Notes under the pieces: generated by a model | Seen by the model: the letters and a program-made list of their open reading frames with translations, nothing else | Told to the model about the DNA's origin: nothing | Databases searched by the model: none | DNA from: a virus | IMG/VR virus record: IMGVR_UViG_3300035018_000013 | Span: 18,054 to 82,053 of that record | Direction: 5' to 3' (one strand) | Length of the DNA: 64,000 nucleotides | Program-made: the position numbers and the translations under genes | In this document: in pieces, positions 16,577 through 39,584 of the stretch | Numbering within the stretch: the first letter of the stretch is position 1 | How the letters are laid out: every line of letters starts with the position of its first letter

Positions 16577-16774
16577 ATGGATACTCCCGTTGAATTGTCA
16601 CTAGAACAGAAATTTAGTCTGCGATCGTTTGAGACTCAGGTAGAGCGAATGAGCCATGAACAGGCGCAGGATTTCCTGGTTAAGCTCTACGAGCAAATGA
16701 TGGTCAGGGAAACTATGTACAAAAATTTTCTTAAACATGAATGGGGGATTGGAGAGCCTAAAATTAATCCCTAA
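16577..16774 (+). CDS. nblA: Phycobilisome degradation protein NblA (host-like copy)
   Basis: PVELSLEQKFSLRSF...MSHEQAQDFLVKLYEQMMVRE...LKHEWG. Confidence 0.95.
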   Translation: MDTPVELSLEQKFSLRSFETQVERMSHEQAQDFLVKLYEQMMVRETMYKNFLKHEWGIGEPKINP

Positions 16775-16826
16775 CTCTAATCCCAGAACCGAAATACTTG
16801 AGCAATTTTTCTATTGCTAATTCGGC

Positions 16827-17348
16827 ATGATAATTTTAGTTATGCCACTAGAGTTATCTCGCTATCCTAAGGACTGGAAAAGGTTCTCTCATAGGCTAAA
16901 GCAACAGGCAGGTTGGCAGTGCCAATGGTGCGATCGCCCCTGTCGTCAGCCCCAAGAATCCTGGTTACAGTTCAAACTGCGCGTCTGGTACGCGTATCCC
17001 TTATACCAGGCGACTAAACTCTACTGCGAAATTGACCAGAACGCCTACTATTTTTTGCTCTCGTTGGCACATTTGGATCAAGATCCTGGCAATAGTCAAC
17101 CTGACAATCTACGTTGCCTTTGTCTGCTCTGCCATCTCAATTACGATCGCCAATTCTTCCACTTCAACCGCCAAACTAAACAAGAGCGCCGAGGGCAACT
17201 TAACTTCTTCAAGCCTGAACTGCTTTTTGCCCAGTCGCTAGCGGGCAAAGGTAAAGACCCCTCTCGAATTCAGCTTGCCATCCCTAAAAAAGAAACCCCA
17301 TCACGGGGAGCAGCCGTGATGAGGAATTGCCAGTCTAGCCGTAAATAA
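16827..17348 (+). CDS. HNH endonuclease; ATG at 16842 is a likely start
   Basis: YPKDW...AGWQCQWC...LSLAHLDQDPGNSQPDNLRCLCLLCHLNYD. Confidence 0.8.
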   Translation: MIILVMPLELSRYPKDWKRFSHRLKQQAGWQCQWCDRPCRQPQESWLQFKLRVWYAYPLYQATKLYCEIDQNAYYFLLSLAHLDQDPGNSQPDNLRCLCLLCHLNYDRQFFHFNRQTKQERRGQLNFFKPELLFAQSLAGKGKDPSRIQLAIPKKETPSRGAAVMRNCQSSRK

Positions 17349-17826
17349 TGTCGTCGTAATTCACGGTAATTTTGAGCTTGGTATCGCCCTCATCCCCGTT
17401 ATCGGCGTTCATATCATAGGCCGGAAATTCAATCTTGCTAGGGAAGCAACCCTTGAGCATGAGCTTGATTTCGTTTGTCCCGGTGCCCTCATGCAAGCGC
17501 TCATAATGGATGGTAACGTTTCGCTTGTAATCAGGATCAACGCCGTCATTTTTGGCTCCGTCCTTGCACTGGTTAAACCAGGTGATATAGGTATCCCGAT
17601 CGGTCGCCCGTGCAAACTGACATTCCAGCGCGTAATCTCCAGCTCGAACCCGACCACCGGGAACCCGTGACTGGTCAGCCAGGTTGATCACGCCAATTTC
17701 CATAGAAATCGCGTCACGAGTCAGGGGCAAAAGCGATCCCGTTAGTGTCGCTTCTGGCAAACCAGCAACGACCATTCGCTGTTTAGCCTTGGGTAAAATG
17801 TTGTGTTCTAGCGTACCTTTCTGCAT
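17335..17826 (-). CDS. Tail tube protein (T4 gp19-like)
   Basis: YITWFNQC...DYKRNVTI...LKGCFPSKIEFP...KITVNYD; follows the sheath gene. Confidence 0.8.
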   Translation of the reverse strand: MQKGTLEHNILPKAKQRMVVAGLPEATLTGSLLPLTRDAISMEIGVINLADQSRVPGGRVRAGDYALECQFARATDRDTYITWFNQCKDGAKNDGVDPDYKRNVTIHYERLHEGTGTNEIKLMLKGCFPSKIEFPAYDMNADNGDEGDTKLKITVNYDDIIYG

Positions 17827-17860
17827 AACTGTTTACCTGTGAGTAATTTAGAAAAATTAA

Positions 17861-17900
17861 TTAATTCTTGGATTGTTTTTTATCGCAATCCAAGAATTAA
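17861..17900. promoter_or_regulatory. Perfect 15-bp stem-loop between sheath and tube genes
   Basis: TTAATTCTTGGATTG (17861-75) and CAATCCAAGAATTAA (17886-900), 10-nt loop. Confidence 0.6.
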
Positions 17901-17907
17901 CAAGTGA

Positions 17908-20900
17908 TTAGAGCAGCGAACCTGCCAAAGAATTTCCGTACTGGCTGACGAGAATATCTGGGCTGAGGTTGATGCCTAGCTCCTCGACAATCCCGGTCGG
18001 GATATATTTCATGTAGATGTGCAATTTGCCGTTAATGATATCGACCAAGCCGATCGAGCCATCTTGAGTGACCGCGCCACGAGGCAAGCTACCTTGAATC
18101 TCAACCGCTTGCCGGAAGGTTAAATAACGGGAGAAAACACCCCGGTTATATTCCTGCTCAGCAAAGTTATTGAGGATCATAATGATTTGATCTAAACGAT
18201 CGGGCTGATTCGGTCGGAAGATCTGCTCTAAAAGTTCTTTCGCTTCCAGAAACACCCGCACATAGTTAGATTGAATGCGACGGATATGAATGAACTCATA
18301 CAGCGGCGACAGTGACGGCGATCGCGCCCCAAACACCACCGAGTTGCCGAACATTACTTTAATGCTCTGAATGCCCGTCATGTTCAGTAACGCTTCGTCT
18401 TGAGCCTTTAGCTCGACAGGTAGCTTAATCACCCGCGACATTTTGGCGCTCACCCCTGCAAAAGGTACGTGGTAGCCTTCCGCGATCGAGGCATAGTTAG
18501 CTTCGCCTCCAAGAATCTCCCCGGTCAGTGAAATCAGGCGATCGCCATTCCCTAAAGGAGAAGAGATAAAGCCATAGCTAGGAAACGCCACAGACAGCGA
18601 ATCACTGCGCCCTAGGTACTGATTGACAAACACTTCGGCAGTCGAAGCGGACGTGTAGTTACTGGGAATCTCACCTCGGAACTCATAGGCATTTTCCACG
18701 GCGTAGGTCGTGAATGCTTTCTGCACCACAACATCAGAAATACCAGGAAGTGCCAACTTGACCAAGCCCAGATTCTTACCCCATAACGCGCCTTCAATCA
18801 CGTTGTTATCCAGGTCGGCATAACGAGTGAAGTTATAGGGAATCAGCCCTGCTAGGTTGCCGTCGTAGCCCCGCTCTAAGAACTGAGGGAACGAAACCAA
18901 AAAGCGCTTGTTAACCTGCGTCATACCGAGCAAGTTATAACCCTGTCCTACTTCCATGTAGCCAGCTTTAACCGCTTTAGTCAGCGCTGGAACGTTAGAT
19001 GGGAATGCAGTTTCGAGCGTAACTTGAGTATCAGTGACGACGACGCGAACCTTACGAGCGGTCTTTGAGACAGGATCATAGAGATAATCACCCTTCTTTA
19101 GAACCGATCGGAAGTTGCTATTAGTACCTGTTACAGTCACGCCAGCCGAACTGATTGTGCCTTCCAGGGTTAACGGCTCAGCCGCGCCCGTGACTCGCAA
19201 ATACGATCGCGCCACTTCATAAGGGCTAGGGTATAGCAGCTTGCCAACCGTGTCCAAATGCTTGAATTCACCCACACTGTAAAGACGGCGATCGCTTAAC
19301 GCAACGATGACCCCAGAGCCGTTAGAGGGGCGAACGTCTGCACCCGCGCTCGTGGTATAAGCAGAGTCCCAAACCGCATCAGCCGTAATCCAGCGCTGAT
19401 AGTTCTGGCTGCCAGTTCGATAGGCAATATTGTTGCCGTCATCGTTCACCAAGGGTTCAACAAATAGTGGATCGCTGGGGTCAAGGCTGGCATCAGGCAC
19501 TTGATAAACCTGCGAACCATTGAAGCGCACCGATAGGGAAAAGTGAGTGAGCGGATACTTTGTACCCTGTCCCACCTCAATGCTCAGACCTTCGTTGCCA
19601 ACCTGGCTCAACTCAATCATTGCCGATAGGCTTTGCTTGGTTAGCTGCGCGTCCGTAAAGTCATGACGGAAAGGCTTTTCAAGCTTTACAGAGGTAGTTG
19701 AAACGACTTCTACAACCTTGACCGCTTCTCCCGCTCTGGCTGGATCGACGATGTAAGCACCTGCCTGTAGTTCAGCGGTAAACAGAGTATCCGTTCCCTC
19801 TACTAGCAGGTTGTCCACTTCCAGGATCGCCGCTGTTAATGCGATCGTGAAACCAGAAGCCAAAGTCAGATGAGTCGCGTCGGTAATGGCGGTCACAACT
19901 CTAGATTGGCGATCGCCGCCCACCATCGTATAGATCGCATCACCGATCGCCAGTTCATTCAAAAACTGTGTCCCAGTTCCAATCACTTCCAAGTTGTCGA
20001 TCTGAAGTGTGACTGCCCCACTATCTGAAAACGCTTCAGATACTGTTGCCGTTGTATTGCTCGTAATCGAGTCCACTACACGAGCTTCCCCGTTCACGTA
20101 CACGTTAGAGCCGACGACTAACTGAGTGGAGAACTGTGTCCCAACGCCTGTAATGACGCGATCGGTAACGGTGACAGTGCCGGAAACATTCTTGAACAAT
20201 GCAAAGGTTGCTGTTCCAGTTAGATCGGCGTACCGCTCGTAAGAACCTGTCCCGCTTAAGGTAGTCGGACCCGATACGCCATCCGCAACTAAGGAGTATT
20301 GAGAAGCGATCGTGAACACGACCTCACCCGATACCTCGGCGGCTTCCGTGTTGGCAATCACCTGATATCGCTTGCCGCTGCCGTTGGTAAATTCGACTTC
20401 TGCACCGACAAATTCATTTGCCCAAGTGTTAGGCGCAATTAGGGTGAAAGTGGTGGCAGTCGCGTAAATAACAGGGCGATCGCCTAGCTTGTTTTTCCGT
20501 CCACCCCAGCGTCCTTCGTTGGCTGCCGTAATTCTCAAGGCATCGGCACCGAGAGCATTTTTCAGCATGATTTCAGCCTTCCGAGCATGGGGCAATTCCA
20601 CTCGGATTAACCAGAGTTGACCCGCGCCGCCGCCTGTTGCATAAAAGCCCTCGATCGCGTCTGGCATCAGGTGAGAACCATCTGCAAACAGGTGCCAATT
20701 CGGATCACGAGGATCGCCGCAAACTTCCTGATAATTAGACTTAGAAGTGAATGGCAACATCACGCCCATAGGGGCACGTTTCATCACTCCGGTCATTTGG
20801 GTGCAGCCGAATTTTGGAGCACTCAGTGCATTACTTCCCGCTCGTTCAATCACACGAACGCCGGGTTGTCCTTGCCTTGCTCCAAATACGCGCACAGCTT

Positions 20901-20913
20901 CTTGTACTGGCAT
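17908..20913 (-). CDS. Contractile tail sheath protein with inserted beta-domain repeats
   Basis: N-terminal GQPGVRVIE; C-terminal sheath core (LALPG, AVAFP, VVFGARS, EFIHIRR, YMKYIPTGIVEELGI); 1001 aa. Confidence 0.85.
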   Translation of the reverse strand: MPVQEAVRVFGARQGQPGVRVIERAGSNALSAPKFGCTQMTGVMKRAPMGVMLPFTSKSNYQEVCGDPRDPNWHLFADGSHLMPDAIEGFYATGGGAGQLWLIRVELPHARKAEIMLKNALGADALRITAANEGRWGGRKNKLGDRPVIYATATTFTLIAPNTWANEFVGAEVEFTNGSGKRYQVIANTEAAEVSGEVVFTIASQYSLVADGVSGPTTLSGTGSYERYADLTGTATFALFKNVSGTVTVTDRVITGVGTQFSTQLVVGSNVYVNGEARVVDSITSNTTATVSEAFSDSGAVTLQIDNLEVIGTGTQFLNELAIGDAIYTMVGGDRQSRVVTAITDATHLTLASGFTIALTAAILEVDNLLVEGTDTLFTAELQAGAYIVDPARAGEAVKVVEVVSTTSVKLEKPFRHDFTDAQLTKQSLSAMIELSQVGNEGLSIEVGQGTKYPLTHFSLSVRFNGSQVYQVPDASLDPSDPLFVEPLVNDDGNNIAYRTGSQNYQRWITADAVWDSAYTTSAGADVRPSNGSGVIVALSDRRLYSVGEFKHLDTVGKLLYPSPYEVARSYLRVTGAAEPLTLEGTISSAGVTVTGTNSNFRSVLKKGDYLYDPVSKTARKVRVVVTDTQVTLETAFPSNVPALTKAVKAGYMEVGQGYNLLGMTQVNKRFLVSFPQFLERGYDGNLAGLIPYNFTRYADLDNNVIEGALWGKNLGLVKLALPGISDVVVQKAFTTYAVENAYEFRGEIPSNYTSASTAEVFVNQYLGRSDSLSVAFPSYGFISSPLGNGDRLISLTGEILGGEANYASIAEGYHVPFAGVSAKMSRVIKLPVELKAQDEALLNMTGIQSIKVMFGNSVVFGARSPSLSPLYEFIHIRRIQSNYVRVFLEAKELLEQIFRPNQPDRLDQIIMILNNFAEQEYNRGVFSRYLTFRQAVEIQGSLPRGAVTQDGSIGLVDIINGKLHIYMKYIPTGIVEELGINLSPDILVSQYGNSLAGSLL

Positions 20914-20928
20914 AATATTAGTCCTGGT

Positions 20929-20944
20929 AAAAAATCAATTGATT
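20929..20944. promoter_or_regulatory. AAAAAATCAATTGATT motif upstream of the sheath gene
   Basis: Exact copies also at 30394, 38948 and (reverse) 41181; variant at 36776. Confidence 0.6.
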
Positions 20945-20971
20945 CTTGAAGTAACTTGATTTGGCGCTTGT

Positions 20972-21370
20972 TTAGGCTGCGGTTAATTGCTTGTTGCCGC
21001 TGCTCAAAACGCCCTGCTCTCGGATGAGGAGAACCCGCTCAAAGGGCGATCGCTTGCCACCTTGAAGCACAAACTCAGAGTTAGGCAGATTGTTCTCAAG
21101 CTCAACCGCATTCAGTTTGGCGTGATCCGCTGCGAGCAAGGGATCTTCCTCGTCCAGAATGATCGCGCCTTTCATTAGCGATTGCTTGTAAGGAAGCGTC
21201 CCAATGAAGATTTGACAGAGATTGATTTCATCAAAGGTAAGCGCGATAAACTGAGTGCCTAAAAAGATTTCAGATTCATCGGTGCTGCGATCGCCCGTAA
21301 AATCTTCTGGCACTGGGATTTGCAAAGGCTCTCTTCCCAGCCTTAATGCAACTTGCTGTTGTGTGGGCAT
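20972..21370 (-). CDS. Hypothetical protein
   Basis: ATG at 21370 preceded by AGGAG; the longer track start runs through a hairpin. Confidence 0.6.
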   Translation of the reverse strand: MPTQQQVALRLGREPLQIPVPEDFTGDRSTDESEIFLGTQFIALTFDEINLCQIFIGTLPYKQSLMKGAIILDEEDPLLAADHAKLNAVELENNLPNSEFVLQGGKRSPFERVLLIREQGVLSSGNKQLTAA

Positions 21371-21390
21371 GAATTCTCCTACAGATAGAC

Positions 21391-21419
21391 AAAAGAAAGC
21401 CACACCTTGCGGCGTGGCT
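21391..21419 (-). terminator. Intrinsic terminator candidate
   Basis: Minus strand AGCCACGCCGCAAGGTGTGGCT followed by TTCTTTT. Confidence 0.5.
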
Positions 21420-21589
21420 CTCCAAAAACTTGTGATTTGATTCAGATTACTCTGAGGATGTTGCCATTCTAGTCAGCTTTTATTGATAGTGATGTGACTG
21501 TTTCCATATTTCATGAAACTTCCGTAATTCTGCGGAGTCATCAGTCGGGGATAAAATTCTCAAAATCCCACCCTAGCCTTGTCACAAAA

Positions 21590-21817
21590 TCATTCACTGT
21601 CGCCGGATATTCTCAGTAGTTGGGCGATCGCGTCTCTGTGCTGATCCTCTACCTGCAACCCTTCGCCAGGAAAGGTGACTCTTATCTCTACTGAGTCCCC
21701 GTCTTCAATCATGGCGATCCGAGCCTCTGCCAGCTCTTCGTCTCGCAGCCCAAGGCTTTTTTTCACAAACGACATAATGCTGTCGTCCAACTCTGCTTCT
21801 ATTTTGGGGTTTTCCAT
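21590..21817 (-). CDS. Hypothetical acidic protein
   Basis: In the late-gene direction, protein-like composition. Confidence 0.55.
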   Translation of the reverse strand: MENPKIEAELDDSIMSFVKKSLGLRDEELAEARIAMIEDGDSVEIRVTFPGEGLQVEDQHRDAIAQLLRISGDSE

Positions 21818-21836
21818 TCTGCCTGAGATCCTTTTT

Positions 21837-22907
21837 CTATATAGTAGGGCTGATCTCTGGTGTCTCCACTCCAGTCACAATCCCGGAAACTTTAACGCGA
21901 TCGCCAATCGAAAGATTAATTAATACCATGGTGAAGCTCATAGAAGGCAGTTGAGCTTCAATGATGCTCATATCTAAATCGTCTGCCCTGATGTGATTGG
22001 AAACGATTACGCCTGTATCAGTTCCATAGGTGGGAGCGTGAATCTTGTTAACCTCCGCGATTAACCCAATTAAATGCTCTGTGGCGGCTCTAGTATCTTG
22101 TAAGTTTTGACCCATAACACAGACCTCGATCGGTTGGTCGCAGATCTGCGCGTGTTGCAGTAGTTGCGCCTGGTTCGCTGGCAGCCTTAAGCTTTCGTAA
22201 GTTTCTATATTGCGATGATTGCGGCTATCCATCAGTCTCAGAATTACGCAGGGTGTTTCTTCAATTTGAAATGGCTGATTCCCTTGAGCGACAAAGGTAG
22301 GCAAATTGTATTCAAACATAATGAACGATCGCCCCCGCACGTTAACTGTCTGAATCTGTGCCACGCGATCGGGGTTAACATCAGGAATCGGGTCGCCCGT
22401 TGAACCATCTAGCCAGCGGTTAAAGTTGACGGGCTGACTAGAAAATAATTTAGGGATGCTGAATTCCATGAGATAAGCCAGCAAATTCCCCGGTGCATAG
22501 TAGCCAAATTTAAGCTCTGAGAGGGGAGGGGATGAGCGATCGCCCAATCGTTCCAACCTCAATCGAAACCGCAGCGGACTCGCCCAATTTGCCGCCAGTG
22601 TTGCCATTCCCTCTCTAATCTGTTCCGGCGTACTGAACCCGCCCAACTGCCATGAGCCAGCCTGAAAACTCCATTCCTGATTGCCCTCATCCACCAGGGC
22701 GATCGTGATACCCTCTTCCTGCGGCTTAATCTCAAAACCTGCATATTTTAGGGCTAACTTCGCTTCAAAGGGTGGCGTGGTCAGCGTCCCCATATCGCCC
22801 GTCAGTTCTAATCTGCCCTTGCTGTAGTTGTAGCCTAGCCCAGAACTTTCAGTAATTTGAGGTGGTTTGAGGGCGATCGTGTGGATGAAGAAATGCATGG
22901 GAGTCAA
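21837..22907 (-). CDS. Putative tail completion/terminator-region structural protein
   Basis: Lies between neck genes and sheath; 4-nt overlap; function inferred from synteny only. Confidence 0.5.
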   Translation of the reverse strand: MTPMHFFIHTIALKPPQITESSGLGYNYSKGRLELTGDMGTLTTPPFEAKLALKYAGFEIKPQEEGITIALVDEGNQEWSFQAGSWQLGGFSTPEQIREGMATLAANWASPLRFRLRLERLGDRSSPPLSELKFGYYAPGNLLAYLMEFSIPKLFSSQPVNFNRWLDGSTGDPIPDVNPDRVAQIQTVNVRGRSFIMFEYNLPTFVAQGNQPFQIEETPCVILRLMDSRNHRNIETYESLRLPANQAQLLQHAQICDQPIEVCVMGQNLQDTRAATEHLIGLIAEVNKIHAPTYGTDTGVIVSNHIRADDLDMSIIEAQLPSMSFTMVLINLSIGDRVKVSGIVTGVETPEISPTI

Positions 22908-23413
22908 CGCCTGAATAATTGCTTAAGTTTGATTTTTTGAACGCGATTCGTGTTCCTCAAAGACTTATCCCACACGCCTCGCCCTGGAATTCTAATAGTC
23001 GTTTTACTGGGCTTAAAATAAACTTTATACCGTCCAAACCAGCGCCGCATCCTCGGCGTAATCTGAATCGTTGCTCCAGAGTTCTGAACTTTAGTAATCA
23101 TCGTCGGTCTGCCGTTAGGGATGCCCAGCAATGATTTAGAAGCGTTCCCCATTCGCTTATGTCGCACCTGAATATGCTTGCGAATGCCTGAGCCGTTGGG
23201 GTTGCCCCGCAGGGTATAAAGATGGAGGGTGAGCGATCGCAATCTCGGTGAATGCTTGCCTCTGCCCTGCGTCCTCAAATGATCCAACATATTGTTATTC
23301 ATCAGCTCAGCTCCCTCCCTTGCCCATTGCTCCCCCTTATCTGGAAGGGCTTTAAGGCTTTGCAGCTTTTGATAAAGCTTGTCCCATTGCGATCGGTGTG
23401 AAAAATTGGGCAT
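22904..23413 (-). CDS. Neck/virion morphogenesis protein (HK97 gp10 / Mu gpG-like)
   Basis: Basic; ITKVQNSGATIQITPRMRRWF...TIRIPGRGVW pattern; start chosen at MPNFSH to avoid overlap with the divergent gene. Confidence 0.6.
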   Translation of the reverse strand: MPNFSHRSQWDKLYQKLQSLKALPDKGEQWAREGAELMNNNMLDHLRTQGRGKHSPRLRSLTLHLYTLRGNPNGSGIRKHIQVRHKRMGNASKSLLGIPNGRPTMITKVQNSGATIQITPRMRRWFGRYKVYFKPSKTTIRIPGRGVWDKSLRNTNRVQKIKLKQLFRR

Positions 23414-23450
23414 GATTCTAGAATTATTGCTCAGTATTATCAGCTTACCC

Positions 23451-24119
23451 ATGGCAAAGAAGGAACCCGTTAATCTCGAAGTCCCAAAGAACCTGGTCTT
23501 TAGAGAACAGCTAGAAATCCGCTACGTGCTAGTAGATGATCTCATTCTGCTAGATCAGAATCCCAAGCTGCACGATATTGGCAAGCTGGTAGATTCGATC
23601 GTGGAAAATGGATTCCTTGACCCGCCCAAATGGGATACGAAGCTGAACGGCGGCGCGGGCGGCATCATTGAAGGAAACGGGCGATCGGAAGCCCTCAAAT
23701 GGATGCAAGAGCAGGGTCGAGAGATTCCTAGAGGCATTGCAGTCAATGAGCAAAACCTGTGGGCGGCACCTGTTATTTTTGGTTGCGATGCCCGTTCTGA
23801 GATTGCAGCAAAACGATATGCGATCGATCACAATAATCTCGTTATGGCAGGCGGTAACTTTTCCGCCCTAGACATGAGCCGTGCCTATGATGCCGAGTCT
23901 TACATCGCCATGCTTCAAGAGCTTGATCAGCAGCAATTTTTGCCCCTAACGCTAGATGGTGAGGACTTAGAGCTTTTGCTAGGGAAGCTGGAGGGCGATC
24001 GCGCTGCTGGAAATGGTGACGACGATCTGCCTCCAAATCATGAAAATATAAATGAACCTAAATTAGGCAAAACTAATTGCACTTGTCCAAGCTGCGGTTT
24101 TGAATGGGAGAAAGATTGA
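23451..24119 (+). CDS. Second ParB/Srx-like protein with C-terminal CxxC zinc ribbon
   Basis: LVDDLILLDQNPKLHDIGKLVDSIVENGFLDPP...IIEGNGRSEAL...AIDHN; CTCPSCGFEW. Confidence 0.75.
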   Translation: MAKKEPVNLEVPKNLVFREQLEIRYVLVDDLILLDQNPKLHDIGKLVDSIVENGFLDPPKWDTKLNGGAGGIIEGNGRSEALKWMQEQGREIPRGIAVNEQNLWAAPVIFGCDARSEIAAKRYAIDHNNLVMAGGNFSALDMSRAYDAESYIAMLQELDQQQFLPLTLDGEDLELLLGKLEGDRAAGNGDDDLPPNHENINEPKLGKTNCTCPSCGFEWEKD

Positions 24120-25102: not shown

Positions 25103-25119
25103 GGGTTTTATCTTGAGTT

Positions 25120-25749: not shown

Positions 25750-25758
25750 TCTGATTCC

Positions 25759-26142: not shown

Positions 26143-27207
26143 TTAAGCTGTGTACGACCAAGCCGTACCGCGATCGCAGCGGAGATTCACTCTCCAAATG
26201 CAATCGCCCTTTGTTTTCGCCTTCAGTGTTCCGTAAGCTACTAACAAACGGGACTCAGTTAGGGGAACGTTTGAAACAAAAGTGGACACTTCAAACAACT
26301 GTGGCTCGAATGTATTTTCACCACCAAAAGGAACAACTCCATGCCATTCAAGTTGATCTTCATCTAGCAACCAAAAAGGCAGGATATCAGGATCGTCTAC
26401 AGTAGCGCCAGGTTCGTCATCAATGAACGGCGACATGACGATCGGCACTAACCCGTAGGGAGTCATGAGCGCCTTCACCATCACGCCTGGGGTGAATTCC
26501 ATATCTTGCAGAATCAGGCGACGATCTTCTACCTGCTTTTGAATTTGATACCAGCCACAGCCAGATGTATAGACCGCTGTAATCTTGCGATCGTAAGTGC
26601 GGTTAGTGGTAGAGCGGGTGACATATTCCACCAATTTAGAACCCACGTTATCAGGCTCAGCCCCGGTAATATCAATCAGGTAGGGAGTCCGCCCTGCAAT
26701 GATTTGGTTGTAGATGCCGTTAAACTCTAGCGGGTTTGTTGTGGCATTCCCGACGAATAGCGCTCTCTCTAGATTCTTGGTAGCACTAGCAATCATATCG
26801 GCAGTATCGATCGCCACTTGATCGCCATAGGGACGACCTTGTTGTTCATACAGCGATCGCTCGTAATGCCCCCAAGCTTTGCGACCCATAATCGCCTTAA
26901 CTTCTTGACCCGTATCACTCAGGTTGTTACGCACACCCGTTTGATCTAAAACCGAAGTTTCCAGAGCGTTCTTGTTGGCAAATCCGGTTGACGGCAAACC
27001 TGTACGAACAATTTCCTTCACTACGTCATCAGTCGCAGCGACTTTTTTAATGCGCGACCATAGACTGACATCGCGGTTCAGGTAGTCGGTAATTTCTGGC
27101 TGAAAGTCAGAGCGATAGGTAAAGCTCCCCCGGTTAGTCGCGGCACCCCGAATCAGGTCTTGAACCTCCTGAGCAGCAGCTTGAACATTGACAAAAGTTG
27201 CAGACAT
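26143..27207 (-). CDS. Major capsid protein (HK97 fold)
   Basis: 354 aa after the protease/scaffold gene; LERALFVGNATTNPLEFNGIYNQI; TPYGLVPIVMSPF. Confidence 0.85.
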   Translation of the reverse strand: MSATFVNVQAAAQEVQDLIRGAATNRGSFTYRSDFQPEITDYLNRDVSLWSRIKKVAATDDVVKEIVRTGLPSTGFANKNALETSVLDQTGVRNNLSDTGQEVKAIMGRKAWGHYERSLYEQQGRPYGDQVAIDTADMIASATKNLERALFVGNATTNPLEFNGIYNQIIAGRTPYLIDITGAEPDNVGSKLVEYVTRSTTNRTYDRKITAVYTSGCGWYQIQKQVEDRRLILQDMEFTPGVMVKALMTPYGLVPIVMSPFIDDEPGATVDDPDILPFWLLDEDQLEWHGVVPFGGENTFEPQLFEVSTFVSNVPLTESRLLVAYGTLKAKTKGDCIWRVNLRCDRGTAWSYTA

Positions 27208-28891: not shown

Positions 28892-30121
28892 TCAAGCGAT
28901 CGCCCCTGCTTTAGGCTTCCCGCCGAACTCCTTCCCTGATTCATCCTCAAGCGGATCGAACCCCAGCTTTACCCGTCCCTCATCCCGTGTGATCAATCCA
29001 CTATCGTAGGTTTCCCGAATCTCCTGATTTCTTACAGCCTCCGATCGCGGCTCTCGGTAATCTCTAACAAATCTGAACCCTGGCAGGAAAAAATCAATCA
29101 CCTCCCCGTCATAGCCCTCATCCATTGTTTGAGCGATCGGGATAATGGCGCGCTGAAAAGTGGTGTCCGCAGAGGCTTCACTGGTCGCGCGGTTATCGTG
29201 TTCCGTGATATTGGCATCACGGCTAGTCAGGGAAAAAGCCAACATGACGACATTCGTTAAAAACTGCGAGTATTGCAGATAAAGTTGATCATCCCCCGAT
29301 GCTCCAATCTTGATCGCTGTCGCCGTCCCAACCCCGCCCATAATGGGTTTCTTCTTTTTCTGAACCACTTCCAAATCCCAGTAAGACCGGAACGCCGTTA
29401 GCTGGGTTTCGTTGACATTCCCCAAGTGTAAAAGCCATTCCTGAGCCGCCTCGCTGGTTGTCTTTTGCTGGTAGTCGGACAGTCCCAGCCAGGCATTCAA
29501 AAAGCCGTATGCAACCTCTAGAGGACTAGGGGGGACTAGCTCGTAGGAATTGACATTGTTGAGCAGCATAAAAGCATTTTCGGAAAGCAGCGATCGCGGG
29601 TTGCCGCCTAACTTGTAATCTAAGAACTTAGGCACAACGCCCTCAACGTAGGGACTCCATTTAGGGTTGATCCGAATGAATGCCGCATCACAGCTCCAGA
29701 GCCAAAAGGGGCGCTCGACCTCCCCCGGCTGGCGTTCGCAAACGGCATAGTTGAGGGTTAGCAAATCGTCAATTAATGCTGAGGTAAGCTGGCGGTAGTT
29801 GTTCAGGGTTGCCTCGGCGTTGGGGCGCTTAATGGCGCGTGTCGCGTTACTAGCCAGGGCGATCGCGGCTTCATTGGTTTTCTTGTCGGCAGGCGGCTCA
29901 ATGTGCCAGGGCATCCTCAGAACGCCCTCTGTGATTTGCTTGATGGCAGAGAACGCCAAAGCGACCTTACTGAACCGTCTGAGCTGACCTGCCTGGATGC
30001 GATCGGCGTTAGAGATGGGGCGCAGTAAGCTCTTTTCCTGAGCAAACGGATAGATCGGCAGACTGGAAAGAGCCGAGTTCTGTTTGATGGGAGTGGATAG
30101 CCGCTTGTTGTTCTTTGCCAT
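28892..30121 (-). CDS. Portal protein
   Basis: 409 aa; LIDDLLTLNYAVCE; PPSPLEVAY; GLITRDEGRVKLGFDPL. Confidence 0.85.
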   Translation of the reverse strand: MAKNNKRLSTPIKQNSALSSLPIYPFAQEKSLLRPISNADRIQAGQLRRFSKVALAFSAIKQITEGVLRMPWHIEPPADKKTNEAAIALASNATRAIKRPNAEATLNNYRQLTSALIDDLLTLNYAVCERQPGEVERPFWLWSCDAAFIRINPKWSPYVEGVVPKFLDYKLGGNPRSLLSENAFMLLNNVNSYELVPPSPLEVAYGFLNAWLGLSDYQQKTTSEAAQEWLLHLGNVNETQLTAFRSYWDLEVVQKKKKPIMGGVGTATAIKIGASGDDQLYLQYSQFLTNVVMLAFSLTSRDANITEHDNRATSEASADTTFQRAIIPIAQTMDEGYDGEVIDFFLPGFRFVRDYREPRSEAVRNQEIRETYDSGLITRDEGRVKLGFDPLEDESGKEFGGKPKAGAIA

Positions 30122-32416: not shown

Positions 32417-32422
32417 TGTTAG

Positions 32423-34552
32423 TTAATCGTTGAGAGGTTGAAAAGCGATCGCCCCTGTCCATAAAGCGCCATTAATAAAAACCCCAGTCGGGTTAATCTC
32501 AATGGTGGCTTGTTCTCCAGCGGTAATGGTAATGTTCGCCCCATCGACCAAAATCTTAGAGAGAACCTGTCCTTCTGGCGTTGTACCTTCGATTAAAATT
32601 CCCTGATTTTCATCAATTTTTAGACGGGCGTTATGCGCTCCTGTAACCGGGAAAATTAAGGGGTCTTGCTTTCCATTTTTCCCCTTCTTCCCCTTAAAAC
32701 TAAAACCACCTGAACCAATTCCAAAGCTCCCCCACGGCGTACTCAGACCCGCACCCGCATCACTGGCAAACACTTGGCTCACGCCCGATGCCGATCGCAG
32801 TTCAGACATCACCGCATTCGCCACCACACGAGGCGTGGGCAGGGTGCTAGGGATAGAGTGAAAGGATTGATTTAGCGCTCCCAAAGCCTCGTCTAAGGCT
32901 GGCGTTAGCTGTTCTGAGAATTGGCTCATCACTTGCTCTAGTGCGGGTAATGAGGGCGGGTTTTCGGCAAGGCTAGCTCTAAGCTGGGGAATCTCCCTCA
33001 GCGTGGGCAACGCCCGTCCCAACGCTTGAGAGGCATTAGCGATCGCCCCTTTTGCTCTCTGTCCTAAAACGTTCGTAAATAAATCCCCAATCTCACTCTC
33101 ACCCGTCACAACGCCACGCACTAATTCTGTAAATTTGGGCTTTTCTAAATGAGCCTGAATCCCTTCTGGCAGGAGCTTCCACACTTTCTCTATGCCTGCT
33201 TGCAAGTCTAAATCAGGAGTAATGGCGCGCTCCTTCGGAGATACCGCAAGGGTCGCGTCCCTCTCTACTACAGCCTGAGATAAAACCAGAGAATCAATTA
33301 ATTCCTGAACCTGACTAATGGTGCCGTGCAGTTCCAATGCCGATAAATTAGCAAAGCTCTCATAACCATTAGGCAGCACTTCGCTAAGAATCATCTCAGC
33401 TTGTAAGGTAGGCTGGTGGCTTAATCCCCGCAAAGTTGCTTCTAGTTCGTCCGGTAAAATATTTAATCCTTCGGTTTTCAAAAATTCATTAATTCTAGGA
33501 AAATCAAAGTTTTCTAAAAGACTGGGTAAGTCCCTGGCTAGACTGGCGATCGCCGGATCAAGCGCTTGTTCTACCTGACTAGAGAGCAGCTTGCCAAAAT
33601 CATCCACCGAGAATTCTTGCAGCTTATCTAAAACGTCCGCACCCTGCGCCGCCGCCGTTCCAACGCCCTTCTCTAACCTTTGAAGTGTGTTAGAAACTTG
33701 ACTCAATTGATTGTCTAGCCCTAATTCAAAGCGCTGATTCAATTCAGAGATCAGGTTCATCCCTTCACCGAGCTTTCCCGTGATCTGCTTTGCCTGATTA
33801 ATGAGTGTCCCGATCGCAGGCATTGGGGCACTCAAAACCGATTCGATCGCCGCTAAATTTAGCTCAGAGCCGAACGCTTCAGAGCGAATCACCGCTGCCC
33901 CATCCGATCCCAAAATGCTGACAGCATCCCCCGCCGATCGCTGGGTGATATCGCCCTCAGCACTCAGAACCGTACTCGCTAACGGATTTTCTATGTTCAC
34001 CGTGCCGTCCGCTTGAAGATGCGATCGCGCCCCGCCCTGAGTTTGGTTAATCACATCCCCAGCGCGAGATACCTGCTGAATTACCCCGTTAGGATATCCG
34101 TCCGTCCGTTCGGCGTTAACGTCATCTTTAATGCTCATCACCTCACCGGGGGTATGCGTTCCATGTACGCCTTTTGCCCGATTAAACATGGGGTTAGGGC
34201 GATCGATTCTACTATGCAAGCAACCCAACATAAGAAGCTGTTGAGGATTGCCCAGCATTGGTAAAAGAGCAATTTGTGTACCCGCTTGCAGCAGTCGATG
34301 GGAGCCGCCCACGCCGCTATTATTAACGAAGTCTTCTAGTACCCAAACCCATCCATCCCAACCGTTAGGCAGGTTATCAGTTGCAGAAATTAGATCGCAC
34401 TTTACCTTAATTCGCCCCAAGCCCTCTGGGTCAATATCATCATTTTCAATGCCTGTCAAAATGCCAGGAATCCAGCCGGGGACAGTGCCGTCTTTCCATT
34501 CCTGAGTATGGGATTCAATTAGATTGGGGCGTAGCAGGCGATCGATGCTCAT
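32423..34552 (-). CDS. Baseplate spike (gp5/gpV-like OB fold plus beta-helix) with long helical insertion
   Basis: DIDPEGLGRIKVKC...GGSHRLLQAGTQIALLPMLGNPQQLLMLGCL. Confidence 0.75.
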   Translation of the reverse strand: MSIDRLLRPNLIESHTQEWKDGTVPGWIPGILTGIENDDIDPEGLGRIKVKCDLISATDNLPNGWDGWVWVLEDFVNNSGVGGSHRLLQAGTQIALLPMLGNPQQLLMLGCLHSRIDRPNPMFNRAKGVHGTHTPGEVMSIKDDVNAERTDGYPNGVIQQVSRAGDVINQTQGGARSHLQADGTVNIENPLASTVLSAEGDITQRSAGDAVSILGSDGAAVIRSEAFGSELNLAAIESVLSAPMPAIGTLINQAKQITGKLGEGMNLISELNQRFELGLDNQLSQVSNTLQRLEKGVGTAAAQGADVLDKLQEFSVDDFGKLLSSQVEQALDPAIASLARDLPSLLENFDFPRINEFLKTEGLNILPDELEATLRGLSHQPTLQAEMILSEVLPNGYESFANLSALELHGTISQVQELIDSLVLSQAVVERDATLAVSPKERAITPDLDLQAGIEKVWKLLPEGIQAHLEKPKFTELVRGVVTGESEIGDLFTNVLGQRAKGAIANASQALGRALPTLREIPQLRASLAENPPSLPALEQVMSQFSEQLTPALDEALGALNQSFHSIPSTLPTPRVVANAVMSELRSASGVSQVFASDAGAGLSTPWGSFGIGSGGFSFKGKKGKNGKQDPLIFPVTGAHNARLKIDENQGILIEGTTPEGQVLSKILVDGANITITAGEQATIEINPTGVFINGALWTGAIAFQPLND

Positions 34553-34555
34553 TTT

Positions 34556-35014
34556 TTATCGCCTTGTCGTTTTATCGATAATTCTAGAATCGAAAATTAC
34601 CAAAGGATCAGCATTCTCAGCAATAACTGAAAACGACTGCCACGCCATGCGATGAAAACGATCGCCAGCAAAGTTCTCAAACGGGAATCGAGATGTTGTG
34701 ACGACTGGAGTTGTTTTACAGCGATCGCTCCTAAAAATAATGCGACGGGCAATATTTTTTGCCGGAATCTCATCTAGCAAAGGCAAAATCAACTCTCCAT
34801 TCACACCCATCATTCGCTGACCAATCACGCGCCCAGCACTGTCCACACTGGGAAAAACGACGACGCAGGGATATTCAAATTGCGTCCGCACTGAAGTGAA
34901 TGTTTTTCTCAGCCCTGCTCTGAACTCAGGCAGTAGGAGCGATCGCTCAAAATCCATCTTTTTAAGCACATCCATTTCCCTGCTAATTTCTCTTCTCCGT
35001 TTTGCTAATCTCAA
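34556..35014 (-). CDS. Hypothetical baseplate-region protein
   Basis: Between baseplate J and spike genes; start uncertain. Confidence 0.5.
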   Translation of the reverse strand: MRLAKRRREISREMDVLKKMDFERSLLLPEFRAGLRKTFTSVRTQFEYPCVVVFPSVDSAGRVIGQRMMGVNGELILPLLDEIPAKNIARRIIFRSDRCKTTPVVTTSRFPFENFAGDRFHRMAWQSFSVIAENADPLVIFDSRIIDKTTRR

Positions 35015-36186
35015 GGCATCACCTCAATTTTGATACTCTGCTGAATCTCTAAAAGGTGCCAAGGCTTGATATCTAAATCCTTTAACGGCACATTCGTTTG
35101 AGCGTGTTTAAGCTGCACCAACGGCACTGCATAAATGCCCCGCACCCGTTCCAACGCCTCAGCTAGGGATTTATTGTATTCCCGATCGCCCCACACACCA
35201 TGAGGGGGATTCAGGCTATCAGTAATAGCCGTTGCAGCTAGATTAAACGCTTCCACCTGAGAGATATCAGATAAGACTTTAATCTGAACTAGCCCATCGA
35301 TCGGGATGATTTCAGCGGGGAATACTGCCAGCCGCTCATCCTTCATTCTGCGGGGATTAATCTCAGCCTCAACCAAAGAAACATAAGTGGAAGGGTAAAC
35401 CGCGATCGCTCTTAAATCTCTAAAGAACCCGTCTACCCCAGGCATTCGCCCCCTGATCACATTCACCTTTTGCGCTCCCACTCTCAGGGCGTAGAACTGG
35501 AAATCCCTATCCGTCACACAGCGATCGCCCGTCCTCAACCAGTCGCGGGTACGATACACGGCATCAATTAATCTTTCAGAACTGCGTCCTTCTGTAATTA
35601 CGCCCTCATTTGCAGCAGTGTCCACAAAAGCCAGCGATCGGGGAATCTGCGAGAACTCCCCTTGTCTGATATTCGGCAGTTTGCCAATCTGATTTAATCG
35701 GCACGGAATCAGAACGGTATTTTGATCCAATTCCATTCGAGCGCTGCTAATCGTGTAGACCGATAAGTTCGGCTGGTAGAGACTGCGAATCTCAATGTTA
35801 ATCGGAATATCAACGGCAATATTCCGGGCGATCGCGTCTTGAGAACGGGTAAACCGGACATTCAACACAGAATATTCAGCGGCTCGTAACTGAGTGCCCA
35901 TCATCCGCAGCCACTCCAGCAACGCAGCATCAGGAACAAGATTAAACTCGTGAGCAATTAAGCTCTGAAGATACACCAGAACGCTTGTGAGAATGGCGTG
36001 AGCGCTGCCTGGAGTTTTAGCAGAGAACGGGGAAGGCTCTCCTGTGGGCAAGGGCTGAGCCAACCTATCCATGATTGCGGCATAGATCTGATCATCGCTA
36101 AAGCCATACAACTCCGGAGAAGGAATCAGGCTTGGATCAATCTGAAGGCTCTGCTCTAGCTCGTAGTAGCGATCGTAAGTGGGCAT
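35011..36186 (-). CDS. Baseplate J-like wedge protein
   Basis: SPGSAH-type N-terminus (TPGSAHAIL), FNLVPDAALLEWLRMMG, RCVTDRDFQFYA. Confidence 0.85.
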   Translation of the reverse strand: MPTYDRYYELEQSLQIDPSLIPSPELYGFSDDQIYAAIMDRLAQPLPTGEPSPFSAKTPGSAHAILTSVLVYLQSLIAHEFNLVPDAALLEWLRMMGTQLRAAEYSVLNVRFTRSQDAIARNIAVDIPINIEIRSLYQPNLSVYTISSARMELDQNTVLIPCRLNQIGKLPNIRQGEFSQIPRSLAFVDTAANEGVITEGRSSERLIDAVYRTRDWLRTGDRCVTDRDFQFYALRVGAQKVNVIRGRMPGVDGFFRDLRAIAVYPSTYVSLVEAEINPRRMKDERLAVFPAEIIPIDGLVQIKVLSDISQVEAFNLAATAITDSLNPPHGVWGDREYNKSLAEALERVRGIYAVPLVQLKHAQTNVPLKDLDIKPWHLLEIQQSIKIEVMP

Positions 36187-36190
36187 GATG

Positions 36191-36775
36191 CTAACGCCAT
36201 TTCCTCAACACAGCTAATCCGGTGCCAATCGGCACCTCTTCAATAAATCTAATGTCCCGATACTCTTTCAGCCATCGCTTTACAATTGCCTTTTCGTCGT
36301 CTCTCCGAAAGTCATCTAGGATAATCCAAGTATTCTGATGCATGAAGTCTTTCAACTTCTCTAGAGCCGGATATCTAGCCTGCGGCTGCGTTCTGGCAGG
36401 TGGGCTATCGATTAAAATCAGATCATAAAAACCCCGCTGTTTTGGTTGAAGTGGATCAAGGTTAAACCATCCATTAATCAAAGGGCAATGTACCAGAGAA
36501 CTGCTCTCTAACTGTTTCTTAGATAGGACAGCCCTAACTTGCGTCAGCCATTTTTGACTATGTTCTAAAGAAAGGGATTTAGAAATCAGTCCCTTTTGCT
36601 TTAGAGCTTCTAAATATACTGTAGACAAGCCGGAGCCACACTCTAGGACAGAATCAATCTGATTCCCTTTAATTAATTCATTAAGCCATTCAAGGCATCT
36701 CAGGCTTAATGCCCAGTTTGTAAAATCCTTCGGCTCTAATTCAGGGAACAACTGACGGAATGATTCTATAGCCAT
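36191..36775 (-). CDS. Class I SAM-dependent methyltransferase (Methyltransf_24-like)
   Basis: VLECGSGLST; SLEH; YDLILIDSPP; IILDD. Confidence 0.85.
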   Translation of the reverse strand: MAIESFRQLFPELEPKDFTNWALSLRCLEWLNELIKGNQIDSVLECGSGLSTVYLEALKQKGLISKSLSLEHSQKWLTQVRAVLSKKQLESSSLVHCPLINGWFNLDPLQPKQRGFYDLILIDSPPARTQPQARYPALEKLKDFMHQNTWIILDDFRRDDEKAIVKRWLKEYRDIRFIEEVPIGTGLAVLRKWR

Positions 36776-36790
36776 AAAAAATCAATTAAT

Positions 36791-37090
36791 CTATTTCCTG
36801 CTGTTTTTCTCCATCTCTTCACGTTGCTTTTGATAGGTTTCACTCAGTTTTTTTACGAAGTAATGTCGCCGCTGCATTGAGAGTCGATAAACCTCCTCAG
36901 CCGAACTGAATGGCGCTTGCTCTCCAGTAATTAGAAAAAACGTCTCATCATTGAGGCGATCGTCATCCGTTATCGGAATCAGCGAAAGTGAGAAACGAAG
37001 GGATATCGCGCCAGGGCACCTCCGCCTTATATTCAAATCCGCAATTTCTACAGCCCATGTCCATCTGCATTCCGGGGCCGAATGAGCCAA
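36791..37090 (-). CDS. Small tail/baseplate assembly protein; start unresolved, possible frameshift product
   Basis: RLNDETFFLI...EEVYRLSMQRRHYFVKKL resembles small tail-chaperone partners; the only ATG overlaps the upstream gene by 128 nt. Confidence 0.5.
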   Translation of the reverse strand: MAHSAPECRWTWAVEIADLNIRRRCPGAISLRFSLSLIPITDDDRLNDETFFLITGEQAPFSSAEEVYRLSMQRRHYFVKKLSETYQKQREEMEKNSRK

Positions 37091-37925
37091 GCTTGCCCAC
37101 CGCCTTCAACAGGTAATCCCGATCGCGGGCATTCAGGGCTTTAAACAAAGACTCGACTCCTAATTCAGAGATCCCAGAGCGATCGCTGTTCTGGCTTTTC
37201 CCATAGGCTTCGCTTTCAGGAATGCCGACAACGGTATGCATGAGCAGTTCATGGTTGAGCCGAAGTTTAGCCCTCTTGTCATCCTGCTTTGCCAGCCGCT
37301 TCATGTCGTACATGCGAATGGGGCGCAGAATAACGCGCTTAATCATGTCGTCAAACACCTTCGCGCCTGTTGGCAGAAACACCTCAACATGAGGACAATT
37401 CATACCCTGAGCCACTTCAATCTCGGTAGACGATAAATCTGAATACTCGCCTTCTCGGTCTTTATTGACCGTCTGACACGCAGGGCATTGACCCTGAATT
37501 TGGATCTCTTTGCCGAAGTTTTCCAACCTAAGCGAAAGCAGCATCGTGAGCGCGTCCGCGAGGTAAAAGTTCTCGAATAATGTGTTGGGTTTAACACTGG
37601 CTTGTTGGGCTACCTCCCGAACAGGAATGTCTCCAATAGTATCAATCATCCGTGCCAGAAAATGAGGCAGAATATCGGAAACCTTGTCTCTAAATCGTGT
37701 TGTCAATCCCGATAAAAACAGCTCATCTTCTCCGGTATAAGGCTTGACAGTATACGTTGTTAATTTCTCACCTTCCGGGGTAAACCAACCGATCGGAAGC
37801 TGTCCAGGAAAGGCTTTTAGTAAAACCATCTCCGTCTTAATGTCGGTATACGGGGTGGTCGGCTTCTCGTCAATTAACGCGATCGCCTCTTCAGTTGCAA
37901 ATCCTTGAGCAGCGGTCTTAACCAT
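36963..37925 (-). CDS. Tail/baseplate assembly chaperone with two CxxC pairs (T4 gp26-like)
   Basis: TVKPYTGEDE; QCPACQ; CRNCG. Confidence 0.6.
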   Translation of the reverse strand: MVKTAAQGFATEEAIALIDEKPTTPYTDIKTEMVLLKAFPGQLPIGWFTPEGEKLTTYTVKPYTGEDELFLSGLTTRFRDKVSDILPHFLARMIDTIGDIPVREVAQQASVKPNTLFENFYLADALTMLLSLRLENFGKEIQIQGQCPACQTVNKDREGEYSDLSSTEIEVAQGMNCPHVEVFLPTGAKVFDDMIKRVILRPIRMYDMKRLAKQDDKRAKLRLNHELLMHTVVGIPESEAYGKSQNSDRSGISELGVESLFKALNARDRDYLLKAVGKLGSFGPGMQMDMGCRNCGFEYKAEVPWRDIPSFLTFADSDNG

Positions 37926-38128
37926 AAAACACTCACAAGCCTCTTGTCGTTGTTTCTTAATCTTGATCAGTTTGTCGCAAATTAATGCAGGAATCGGTAA
38001 AAACTTTACGGCTAAAAGATTACAGCCTGCCGCCTCACGCTACAACGCTGATATTACCCAGAGATTGCAGAGCGAACAAACCCTGAAAACGGAATCTTAA
38101 GGATTGATCACCACCGCAGGGAAAACCA

Positions 38129-38944
38129 ATGTCAAGCTTGATTACGATCGCCCAATCCTTTCGCAGCACTGAACCTCAGCAACAAGCGATTCAGTGGTTC
38201 CAAGATTCAACCGGGAAGCAGAAGCAGCAAGAATTCGCCCTGCAATGGCGCAATGGCGAGGACAAGGGAGCAATTAGCTTTGTCGATGCCTTTAGATGCT
38301 ACAAGGCTATCGCTCATCAGAATGCTGCCCTCAAGTGGCTGGAGAGCAGCAGCCAGATAAGAACCATCATGGAACTAGAGAGGTTATGGAAAAAAATAAT
38401 TGATTCTCCCAGCCAAGATATTAGGCTGAAGGTGCCTTATTTTCAGCAGGTGGACAATAAATTTGAACCGATGCGGACGTGCAACACCTCTAGCTGTGCC
38501 ATGGTAGCTCGATTTTTAGGCGCGAAAATCTCCAGCGACGACGAATACTATCAGCACGTCATTAAGTATGGCGACACGACCGATCATACGGCTCAGACCT
38601 ATGCACTGAAGGCGGTCGGTATTCGATCGATTTGGCGGACGGATTTAGACTTCGCGGATCTAGATGGGGCGATCGCGGCGGGTCTACCCGTAGTCATTGG
38701 CATTTTACATCGAGGGACGCTGAATGCTCCCGAAGGTGGACACATGATTGTCGTGATTGGATTAACCAGCCAGAAAGACTATATCTGCCACGATCCATTC
38801 GGCAGCCTACTGGATGCCGCTGGCGGGTATACGGGTGATGTGACTAATGGCTGTGCAGTGGTTTACCCTCGCGCTGTCCTGAATCGTCGCTGGTTGGTAG
38901 AGGGCGATCGCACGGGCTGGGGTCGCTTGTTCTCCAAGATTTAG
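38129..38944 (+). CDS. C39-like cysteine peptidase with duplicated N-terminal helical motif (endolysin candidate)
   Basis: LKVPYFQQ...TCNTSSCAM...GGHMIVVIG...ICHDPFG; repeats QQQAIQWFQ and HQNAALKWLE. Confidence 0.85.
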   Translation: MSSLITIAQSFRSTEPQQQAIQWFQDSTGKQKQQEFALQWRNGEDKGAISFVDAFRCYKAIAHQNAALKWLESSSQIRTIMELERLWKKIIDSPSQDIRLKVPYFQQVDNKFEPMRTCNTSSCAMVARFLGAKISSDDEYYQHVIKYGDTTDHTAQTYALKAVGIRSIWRTDLDFADLDGAIAAGLPVVIGILHRGTLNAPEGGHMIVVIGLTSQKDYICHDPFGSLLDAAGGYTGDVTNGCAVVYPRAVLNRRWLVEGDRTGWGRLFSKI

Positions 38945-38964
38945 AACAAAAAATCAATTGATTT

Positions 38965-39000
38965 CCCAAATCCGTCACGCTGTCGGATTTGGGTTTTTTT
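38965..39000 (+). terminator. Intrinsic terminator
   Basis: CCCAAATCCG-tcacgctgt-CGGATTTGGG followed by TTTTTTT. Confidence 0.75.
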
Positions 39001-39388
39001 ATGCACTGAAAACAACCCGCCGATCGCTACTCCTTAATCGCTTTGCTGTTGCCTGATCTAGCCCATGCTTGCCTGTAGCCCGATCAATCTTCTTTCGTGG
39101 GTCTTTGGCGTTCCGATCGATATTGCTGCCATCGCCAATCAGCACGCCACCCCGTAGGCGATCGCACTCTACCAATTCCATGCCCTTGTACAAGCATTCG
39201 GATTCCTCAAAAGCTCCATTTGGGCTAAGTTCTTGATACGTTAACCTGTAGCGAACCAGCGTCCATTTGCCGATTTGTGAATACCAGAGAATAGAGAATT
39301 TCTGCCCTGGTAAAAGATTGAGATTGTTCGGGGTGGTGAAGAAACGAGGGTGAAGCATATTGTCTGAATGATGGGAAACCTGATTCAA
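38999..39388 (-). CDS. Hypothetical protein; ATG at 39358 is a possible start
   Basis: ORF divergent from the second nblA. Confidence 0.45.
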   Translation of the reverse strand: MNQVSHHSDNMLHPRFFTTPNNLNLLPGQKFSILWYSQIGKWTLVRYRLTYQELSPNGAFEESECLYKGMELVECDRLRGGVLIGDGSNIDRNAKDPRKKIDRATGKHGLDQATAKRLRSSDRRVVFSA

Positions 39389-39407
39389 ATTCTTATTTTG
39401 GAGAGCT

Positions 39408-39584
39408 ATGGAACAGCCCGTTGCATTGTCTTTGGAACAGCAATTTAACTTGCGATCGCTTGAAGAGAAATCAAAGCATCTACCCCTAGAACAAATTCAA
39501 CGGATGCTGATTGAAACGTATACTCAGATGATGCTTAACGATGCAAGGTACAAAGCTGAACTGAAAAAACAGTGGAGAATTTGA
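39408..39584 (+). CDS. nblA: Second NblA (58 aa, not in ORF track)
   Basis: My translation: MEQPVALSLEQQFNLRSLEEKSKHLPLEQIQRMLIETYTQMMLNDARYKAELKKQWRI; GGAGAG Shine-Dalgarno; 27/58 identical to the 16577 copy. Confidence 0.85.
   Translation: MEQPVALSLEQQFNLRSLEEKSKHLPLEQIQRMLIETYTQMMLNDARYKAELKKQWRI

Follow-up and report, generated by a model that had tools for sequence, protein, structure and literature searches.

A stretch of 64,000 nucleotides of viral DNA (positions 18,054 to 82,053 of the IMG/VR virus record IMGVR_UViG_3300035018_000013; the window in what follows) carries two different genes of the NblA family, both within one prophage of a cyanobacterium. Viral NblAs drive phycobilisome degradation (10.1101/494369; PMC12695635). 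The first gene, nblA-a (16577-16774, plus strand), is an intact open reading frame (ORF) for a 65-amino-acid NblA of the host- or Nostoc-like subtype, and the second, nblA-b (39408-39584, plus strand), is an intact, full-length frame for a diverged, 58-amino-acid NblA of a phage-associated lineage. We consider it probable that both are functional NblA-family genes that serve one temperate cyanophage as auxiliary host-takeover genes, namely as two adaptors that were acquired independently, that have different timing and/or phycobiliprotein targets and that can each act alone rather than as an obligate heterodimer. Independent adaptors seem to us the most likely arrangement because the genes lie in separate transcription units and because nblA-b has a glutamate at a phycobiliprotein-contact position. 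By analogy with cyanobacteria and the tested cyanophages, one face of each NblA would bind phycobiliproteins and the region of the N-terminal LSLEQ-F motif would bind ClpC, and the antenna would thereby be fed to the Clp protease during phage growth.

On profile comparison, the NblA-family membership of both ORFs is far above chance: against Pfam PF04485 (NblA), for which the gathering score is 25 bits, nblA-a scores 92.9 bits (E 1.6e-26) and nblA-b 52.1 bits (E 9.1e-14), each in an end-to-end match. An earlier reading of the letters (the original prediction) had named these two ORFs with the same coordinates, and had counted 27 of 58 identical residues between them; BLASTP reproduces that count without gaps (E 4e-17). 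For both copies the best PDB match is the NblA of Nostoc PCC 7120 (1OJH), followed by the NblA structures of T. vulcanus and S. elongatus; both align to 1OJH ungapped across residues 1-57, and the whole alignment of nblA-a to it is gapless (E 1.4e-24). The conserved LSLEQ.F and C-terminal Y...LK..W motifs that had been noticed earlier are found in both copies, as L-S/T-L-E-Q-x-F and Y...L-K..W. More generally, L7, E10, Q11, F13, Y48, L52, K53 and W56 occur in both, at columns that are 76-100% conserved among 78 aligned sequences, and in this alignment nblA-b retains all the near-invariant residues of the family, while Y48, L52 and W56, the dimer-forming residues of helix 2, are preserved in both copies.

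The fold of the second ORF had been set beforehand as its structural test, and the ORF passes it. An AlphaFold2 model of nblA-b from the 78-sequence alignment has a predicted local distance difference test (pLDDT) of 93.2 and consists of helices at residues 9-22 and 27-55, the same helix-loop-helix as in the Nostoc protein. When the model was compared exhaustively with 48,161 PDB representative chains by VIA-align, NblA structures took ranks 1-3, with Z 6.9 for 2q8v (root-mean-square deviation 1.6 Å across 53 residues), 6.6 for 1ojh and 5.5 for 3cs5 and with deviations of 1.2-2.3 Å over the three. In absolute terms these are modest Z values, in keeping with a length of 58 residues. Foldseek gave no PDB match for the same 58-residue model, which is a small hairpin. 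The original prediction had called this gene hidden below an ORF-size cutoff, which is true of the reader's own ORF list; however, the 58-amino-acid product is already in a public protein collection, from a 520,447-bp contig and with a precomputed PF04485 match.

Both genes belong to one phage, as had been stated, if this is taken to mean one prophage bounded by attachment sites. The window (G000:C28:286514-350513) lies wholly inside this element of about 101 kb, and all of it is phage-like. The element extends from attL, in a tRNA-Pro(TGG) gene (G000:C28:268268-268342; window -18,245 to -18,171), to attR, a 56-nt identical copy of the 3' part of that tRNA (C28:369248-369303; window 82,735 to 82,790). 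Its left flank matches the same-genus genomes G001 and G002 only as far as tRNA-Pro(TGG), and in G001:C112 and G002:C130 the left and right flanks directly adjoin each other, so that the integration site is empty in both. An ORF of 372 amino acids beside attL (G000:C28:268461-269579, L009:1948-3066) resembles the integrase family phrog_1 with an E value of only 1.1e-6; this integrase candidate is very divergent and has no match to Pfam PF00589 (Phage_integrase), and no other recombinases were found in the scanned parts of the element. Virion and packaging genes are spread through the element and encode the terminase large subunit (54252-56339), portal (28892-30121), major head protein (26143-27207), baseplate wedge (35011-36186), tail fibre (17908-20913), a P2-I-like tail protein and lysins; the window also holds genes for an HslV-like peptidase, a sigma factor and an AAA ATPase and for a probable tape measure of 2365 amino acids. 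In our reading, the element is a temperate cyanophage of contractile-tail type integrated at tRNA-Pro.

The host genome, G000, is a cyanobacterial assembly of 4.9 Mb in 29 contigs that is 100% complete. Its NblA is 97-100% identical to NblAs of metagenome-assembled genomes (MAGs) named Leptolyngbyaceae and Elainellales, and we identify the host, from sequence, as an Elainellales/Leptolyngbya-like filamentous, non-marine cyanobacterium. Its genome encodes three or more alpha/beta pairs of phycobiliproteins as well as core components, so distinct targets exist. The HIP1 octamer GCGATCGC occurs 2.14 times per kb in the prophage (G000:C28:268343-369248) and 2.22 times per kb in the window, against 1.41 genome-wide, and a single GCGATCGC lies inside nblA-b (39451-39458). 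Outside attR, the right end of the prophage is abutted by a repeat of about 156 nt that resembles a miniature inverted-repeat transposable element (L010:18795-18951, G000:C28:369308-369464); at least 14 further copies with 93-99% identity are present in the genome, and it is also found in relatives.

Five NblA loci exceed the Pfam cut-off in G000 and three in each of G001 and G002, where they are orthologues of the G000 genes on contigs C24, C22 and C4; therefore, the two window copies are extras brought by the prophage, and a hidden Markov model (HMM) scan of the whole element found exactly two NblA genes. The two have separate ancestries. The product of nblA-a shares 49 of 58 core residues with that of the host C24 gene and is of the same Nostoc-like subtype, and in the NblA tree, which was built from 64 columns and is weak overall with only local groupings supported, it is one branch of an unresolved polytomy that holds this subtype, and its shortest path leads to the host gene. 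At the nucleotide level the two genes are 71% identical, and their homology stops at the ends of the coding sequence. Since synonymous sites are saturated (pS 0.85) and nonsynonymous divergence is low (pN 0.16), the comparison indicates long-term purifying selection on nblA-a. A recent capture of the host C24 gene was considered and is ruled out by the synonymous saturation and by the limitation of the homology to the coding sequence. As a separate observation on the host genes, in the region G000:C22:28681-29251 (L003) a phycobilisome-protein-like frame interrupted by one TGA lies no more than about 220 nt downstream of the C22 nblA; this frame may be a decayed biliprotein gene.

No relative of nblA-b above about 50% identity was found in an exhaustive HMMER search of 1.84 billion representatives, and a word-indexed protein search returned only nblA-b itself. 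The description of the first copy as host-like and of the second as more diverged was thus accurate, and the HMM and phylogeny check that had been proposed puts both in the family, nblA-a with the host subtype and nblA-b with NblAs of phage contigs. In the tree, nblA-b groups with the relatives P0022 and P0032 (support 98/85) and then with P0003 (support 95/77). The gene for P0003 shares its 64-kb contig with RecT, DnaB, sliding-clamp and GpJ-type tail genes, that for P0032 is accompanied by integrase and terminase genes on a contig of 72 kb, and P0022 comes from a 988-bp contig made up of small genes that overlap; within the 20 kb fetched around them, P0003 and P0032 are accompanied by no second NblA. 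On this sequence evidence we place nblA-b in a small phage-associated NblA lineage. The second-best match to nblA-b, P0002 (E 2.5e-10), lies outside the window and is a protein of 484 amino acids with seven NblA-like stretches, apparently a poly-NblA repeat protein.

The high divergence of nblA-b, with at most 50% identity to anything known, its non-conservative change at a binding position and its absence from related prophages could be taken to mean that it is a decaying, non-functional remnant and that nblA-a alone matters. We regard this as very unlikely: the frame is intact and untruncated, the near-invariant residues are all kept, the model is confident and NblA-like, the ribosome-binding site is good, and the gene belongs to a supported clade of intact, similar-sized genes on other phage contigs.

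The change in question concerns one of two residues of Nostoc NblA, L51 and K53, that are reported as phycobiliprotein-binding positions (PMC12695635, citing Karradt 2008). K53 is kept in both nblA-a and nblA-b; strict conservation of this residue is not required, since the NblA of cyanophage S-TIP37, which is functional, has Thr there. At the position equivalent to L51, the three proteins differ: nblA-a has Phe, which occurs in 16 of the 78 aligned sequences, the host copy among them, whereas nblA-b has Glu (window 39558-39560), a residue found in only four of the 78. The other three carriers are P0003 (L036:10001-10183), P0022 (L041:374-544) and P0037 (L039:10001-10201), and all four Glu-51 NblAs sit on phage-like or phage-style contigs. 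The 85-kb contig of P0037 is phage-like and has an integrase, and because P0037 falls outside the nblA-b clade, Glu-51 may have more than one origin; the acidic residue recurs in NblAs of at least three unrelated phage-like contigs. These observations are suggestive, although not proof, of an altered target or affinity in nblA-b. A more specific proposal is that nblA-b represents a phage-specific NblA variant, marked by the acidic residue 51, whose changed target specificity or pairing with a host or phage NblA would reprogram antenna degradation, possibly including a damping of it during lysogeny; we think it improbable that this specific form is correct.

The surroundings of the two genes differ as well and agree with the contexts described in the original prediction. 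Upstream of nblA-a, and divergent from it across a 66-nt spacer, lies a QueE-like radical-SAM gene (15878-16510, minus strand; Pfam Radical_SAM and Fer4_12), of which the host has a 40% identical paralogue on C4 and which forms a 7-deazaguanine module with a PTPS/QueD-like gene (15435-15878; Pfam PTPS). An AGGA motif stands 8-11 nt 5' of the nblA-a ATG, and an HNH endonuclease gene (16827-17348, plus strand; phrog_1571, E 2.3e-14) is directly 3'. The second copy lies between a C39-like cysteine peptidase gene and a lysozyme/M23 lysin gene. The peptidase gene (38129-38944, plus strand; Pfam Peptidase_C39_2, E 7.6e-13) and nblA-b form a plus-strand islet among minus-strand late genes. This peptidase shares 69% identity with a paralogue on the host chromosome (G000:C25:56186-56995) and with genes of G001 and G002; it is a second host-derived gene, and adjoins nblA-b. 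Immediately upstream and divergent from nblA-b is an unannotated minus-strand ORF (38999-39388, starting at TTG 39388 or ATG 39358) that has no Pfam match, and the convergent lysin gene (39677-41173, minus strand) encodes lysozyme-like and M23 domains (phrog_181 endolysin, E 6.4e-25). The "good Shine-Dalgarno" that had been claimed for the second copy is a GGAG 6-9 nt ahead of its ATG. Six nucleotides past its stop codon, between the convergent nblA-b and lysin genes, an 8-bp, GC-rich hairpin (39590-39613, plus strand) is possibly a non-canonical terminator; its z-score is only -0.24, no stabler than shuffled sequence, and a consensus terminator scan does not call it. The two nblA genes are 22.6 kb apart with about 20 minus-strand structural genes between them, and they belong to separate transcription units. 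The position of nblA-a beside a DNA-modification module and of nblA-b against late structural and lysis genes could reflect a split in timing.

The same layout is open to a different interpretation, in which nblA-b is a modulator that pairs with nblA-a or with the host NblAs, or that occupies ClpC, and thereby damps or retargets bleaching, and in which it could be a lysogenic-conversion "moron". As a lone plus-strand gene between a minus-strand ORF and a convergent lysin gene, 3' of the peptidase gene, with minus-strand late surroundings, its own Shine-Dalgarno and a downstream hairpin, nblA-b is laid out like a moron; its Glu at the L51 position is combined with an intact N-terminal motif, three host nblA genes are available as partners, and G1b, the second copy of a published marine phage, showed no activity when tested by complementation (10.1101/494369). 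However, no promoter was detected at nblA-b, the protein retains K53 and every other conserved position, and the presence of E51 in the phage-borne NblAs P0003, P0037 and P0022 fits an adapted functional variant equally well, so that we judge a modulator to be quite unlikely.

The nblA1 and nblA2 genes of Synechocystis are chromosomal, adjacent and co-expressed. In Synechocystis PCC 6803 both products are needed and form a heterodimer (cited in 10.1101/494369), and it has to be asked whether nblA-a and nblA-b likewise form one active adaptor as a heterodimer. The cases are alike in that two NblA paralogues occur in one genetic system. In a complex prediction the nblA-a/nblA-b pair scored 0.47 against 0.02 for the best control, with contacts at least 93% alike in three runs and a partner pLDDT of at least 74, and the dimer-forming residues Y48, L52 and W56 of helix 2 are in both copies. 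This was the only pair modelled as a complex, and the tool itself grades such a result as "weak support" and "more often wrong than right unless likely beforehand". In its calibration, 51 of 78 solved complexes and 2 of 108 mismatched pairs reached the mark, but scores of 0.60 or below contained only five of the 78 solved complexes and all four mismatches that passed; moreover, the tool warns that a protein whose family has solved dimers can score well through memorised structures, and that a pass does not tell which member of the family binds. The model check that had been proposed for the heterodimer thus gives weak support for compatibility of the two predicted chains, and no evidence of binding. 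Unlike the Synechocystis pair, the phage genes are not adjacent; they lie about 23 kb apart in separate units, have different ancestries and are only weakly predicted to pair. Further, the relatives of nblA-b on phage contigs have no second NblA within the 20 kb fetched, and for the two copies of the marine phage, G1 and G1b, docking gave no support for a heterodimer (10.1101/494369). Overall, an obligate heterodimer is a doubtful explanation.

Several points weigh against two independent, functional adaptors. Glu at the L51-equivalent position could weaken phycobiliprotein binding by nblA-b, and the second copy of the published marine phage failed complementation (10.1101/494369). The complex prediction is compatible with a heterodimer. 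In simple scans, neither nblA had a sigma-70-type promoter or a canonical terminator nearby, and no strict NtcA site (GTA-N8-TAC) is present within 350 nt 5' of either gene. The 1.84 billion representatives include no close homologue against which selection on nblA-b could be gauged. Finally, related prophages manage without these genes. The prophages of G010, G060 and G034, whose terminases are 44-51% identical, contain no extra nblA. A much closer relative is present in G002, with structural proteins that are 80-94% identical, in small assembly fragments that break at accessory regions (contigs C257, C303, C154, C320, C250, C214 and C228; L124, L128, L130, L126 and L015); it has an M23/lysozyme gene beside its homologue of orf17335, where the HNH endonuclease, nblA-a and queE genes sit in the present element. 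No fourth or fifth nblA was found in the G002 genome, in which the fragmented prophage assembly leaves the presence of nblA-b undecidable. Both nblA genes therefore behave as exchangeable, dispensable accessories. Weighed together with the separate transcription units and the divergent binding position, we still hold two separately acquired adaptors to be the probable explanation.

Known viruses gave few matches. In INPHARED, nblA-a matches only Ma-LMM01-type phages, with 37-38% identity and at one place per genome, while nblA-b (tblastn) and 24 kb of the window (megablast) have no match. A scan of IMG/VR with nblA-b returned one locus, an a-type NblA on a myovirus fragment (UViG_3300022723_000164) between tape-measure and tail-tube genes; scans of IMG/VR with the lysin and with nblA-a, and of genome contigs with the terminase, returned no match. 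The same myovirus fragment encodes a Tad6 anti-Thoeris protein (L035:9442-9993, E 2.2e-41) next to a helix-turn-helix regulator.

The presence of two nblA genes in one phage is not in itself new, contrary to what the original prediction implied. Two different copies in integrase-bearing marine cyanophage genomes were published in 2018-2019 (Flores-Uribe et al., bioRxiv 10.1101/325100; Nadel et al., 10.1101/494369), and Nadel et al. tested both copies of one MAG, of which G1 complements an nblA mutant and G1b does not, and raised the idea of a heterodimer (10.1101/494369). That marine lineage is similar to the present prophage in having two different nblA genes in one putatively temperate cyanophage genome. 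However, the marine phages are metagenome-assembled, have unknown or picocyanobacterial hosts and have not been seen integrated, whereas the element described here is an integrated prophage of about 101 kb whose att sites are defined. Its filamentous, Elainellales-like host contributes a further three nblA genes, and one of the phage copies is of the host's own NblA subtype. The freshwater phages Ma-LMM01 and MaMV-DC of Microcystis and PaV-LD of Planktothrix likewise infect cyanobacteria with phycobilisomes and carry an auxiliary nblA that derives from a host, but these phages are lytic, and each genome has a single place for nblA. An nblA on an integrated cyanobacterial phage is also shared with Microcoleus prophages (bioRxiv 10.1101/2023.04.12.536658) and with a prophage of Synechococcus AG-670-B23 (PMC12695635), for which one NblA per prophage is mentioned. 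What is new here is a two-nblA temperate cyanophage seen integrated, and in a filamentous non-marine host; it extends the published pattern without changing the picture.

The locus offers a cleaner system than the marine MAG phages, because the prophage is defined, its att sites are known and the host assembly, from an "algae metagenome", is 100% complete in 29 contigs; a host-type and a phage-lineage NblA occur together in the prophage, in addition to three paralogues of the host. If the host can be cultured, both genes would be open to expression, to deletion and to timing across induction. Viral NblA depresses cyanobacterial photosynthesis at ocean scale, according to PMC12695635, and among phages with more than one nblA the sole tested second copy, G1b, is inactive alone. 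The interest of the present case for the NblA family is modest, and lies in a tractable system together with the recurrence of Glu-51 in phage-borne NblAs.

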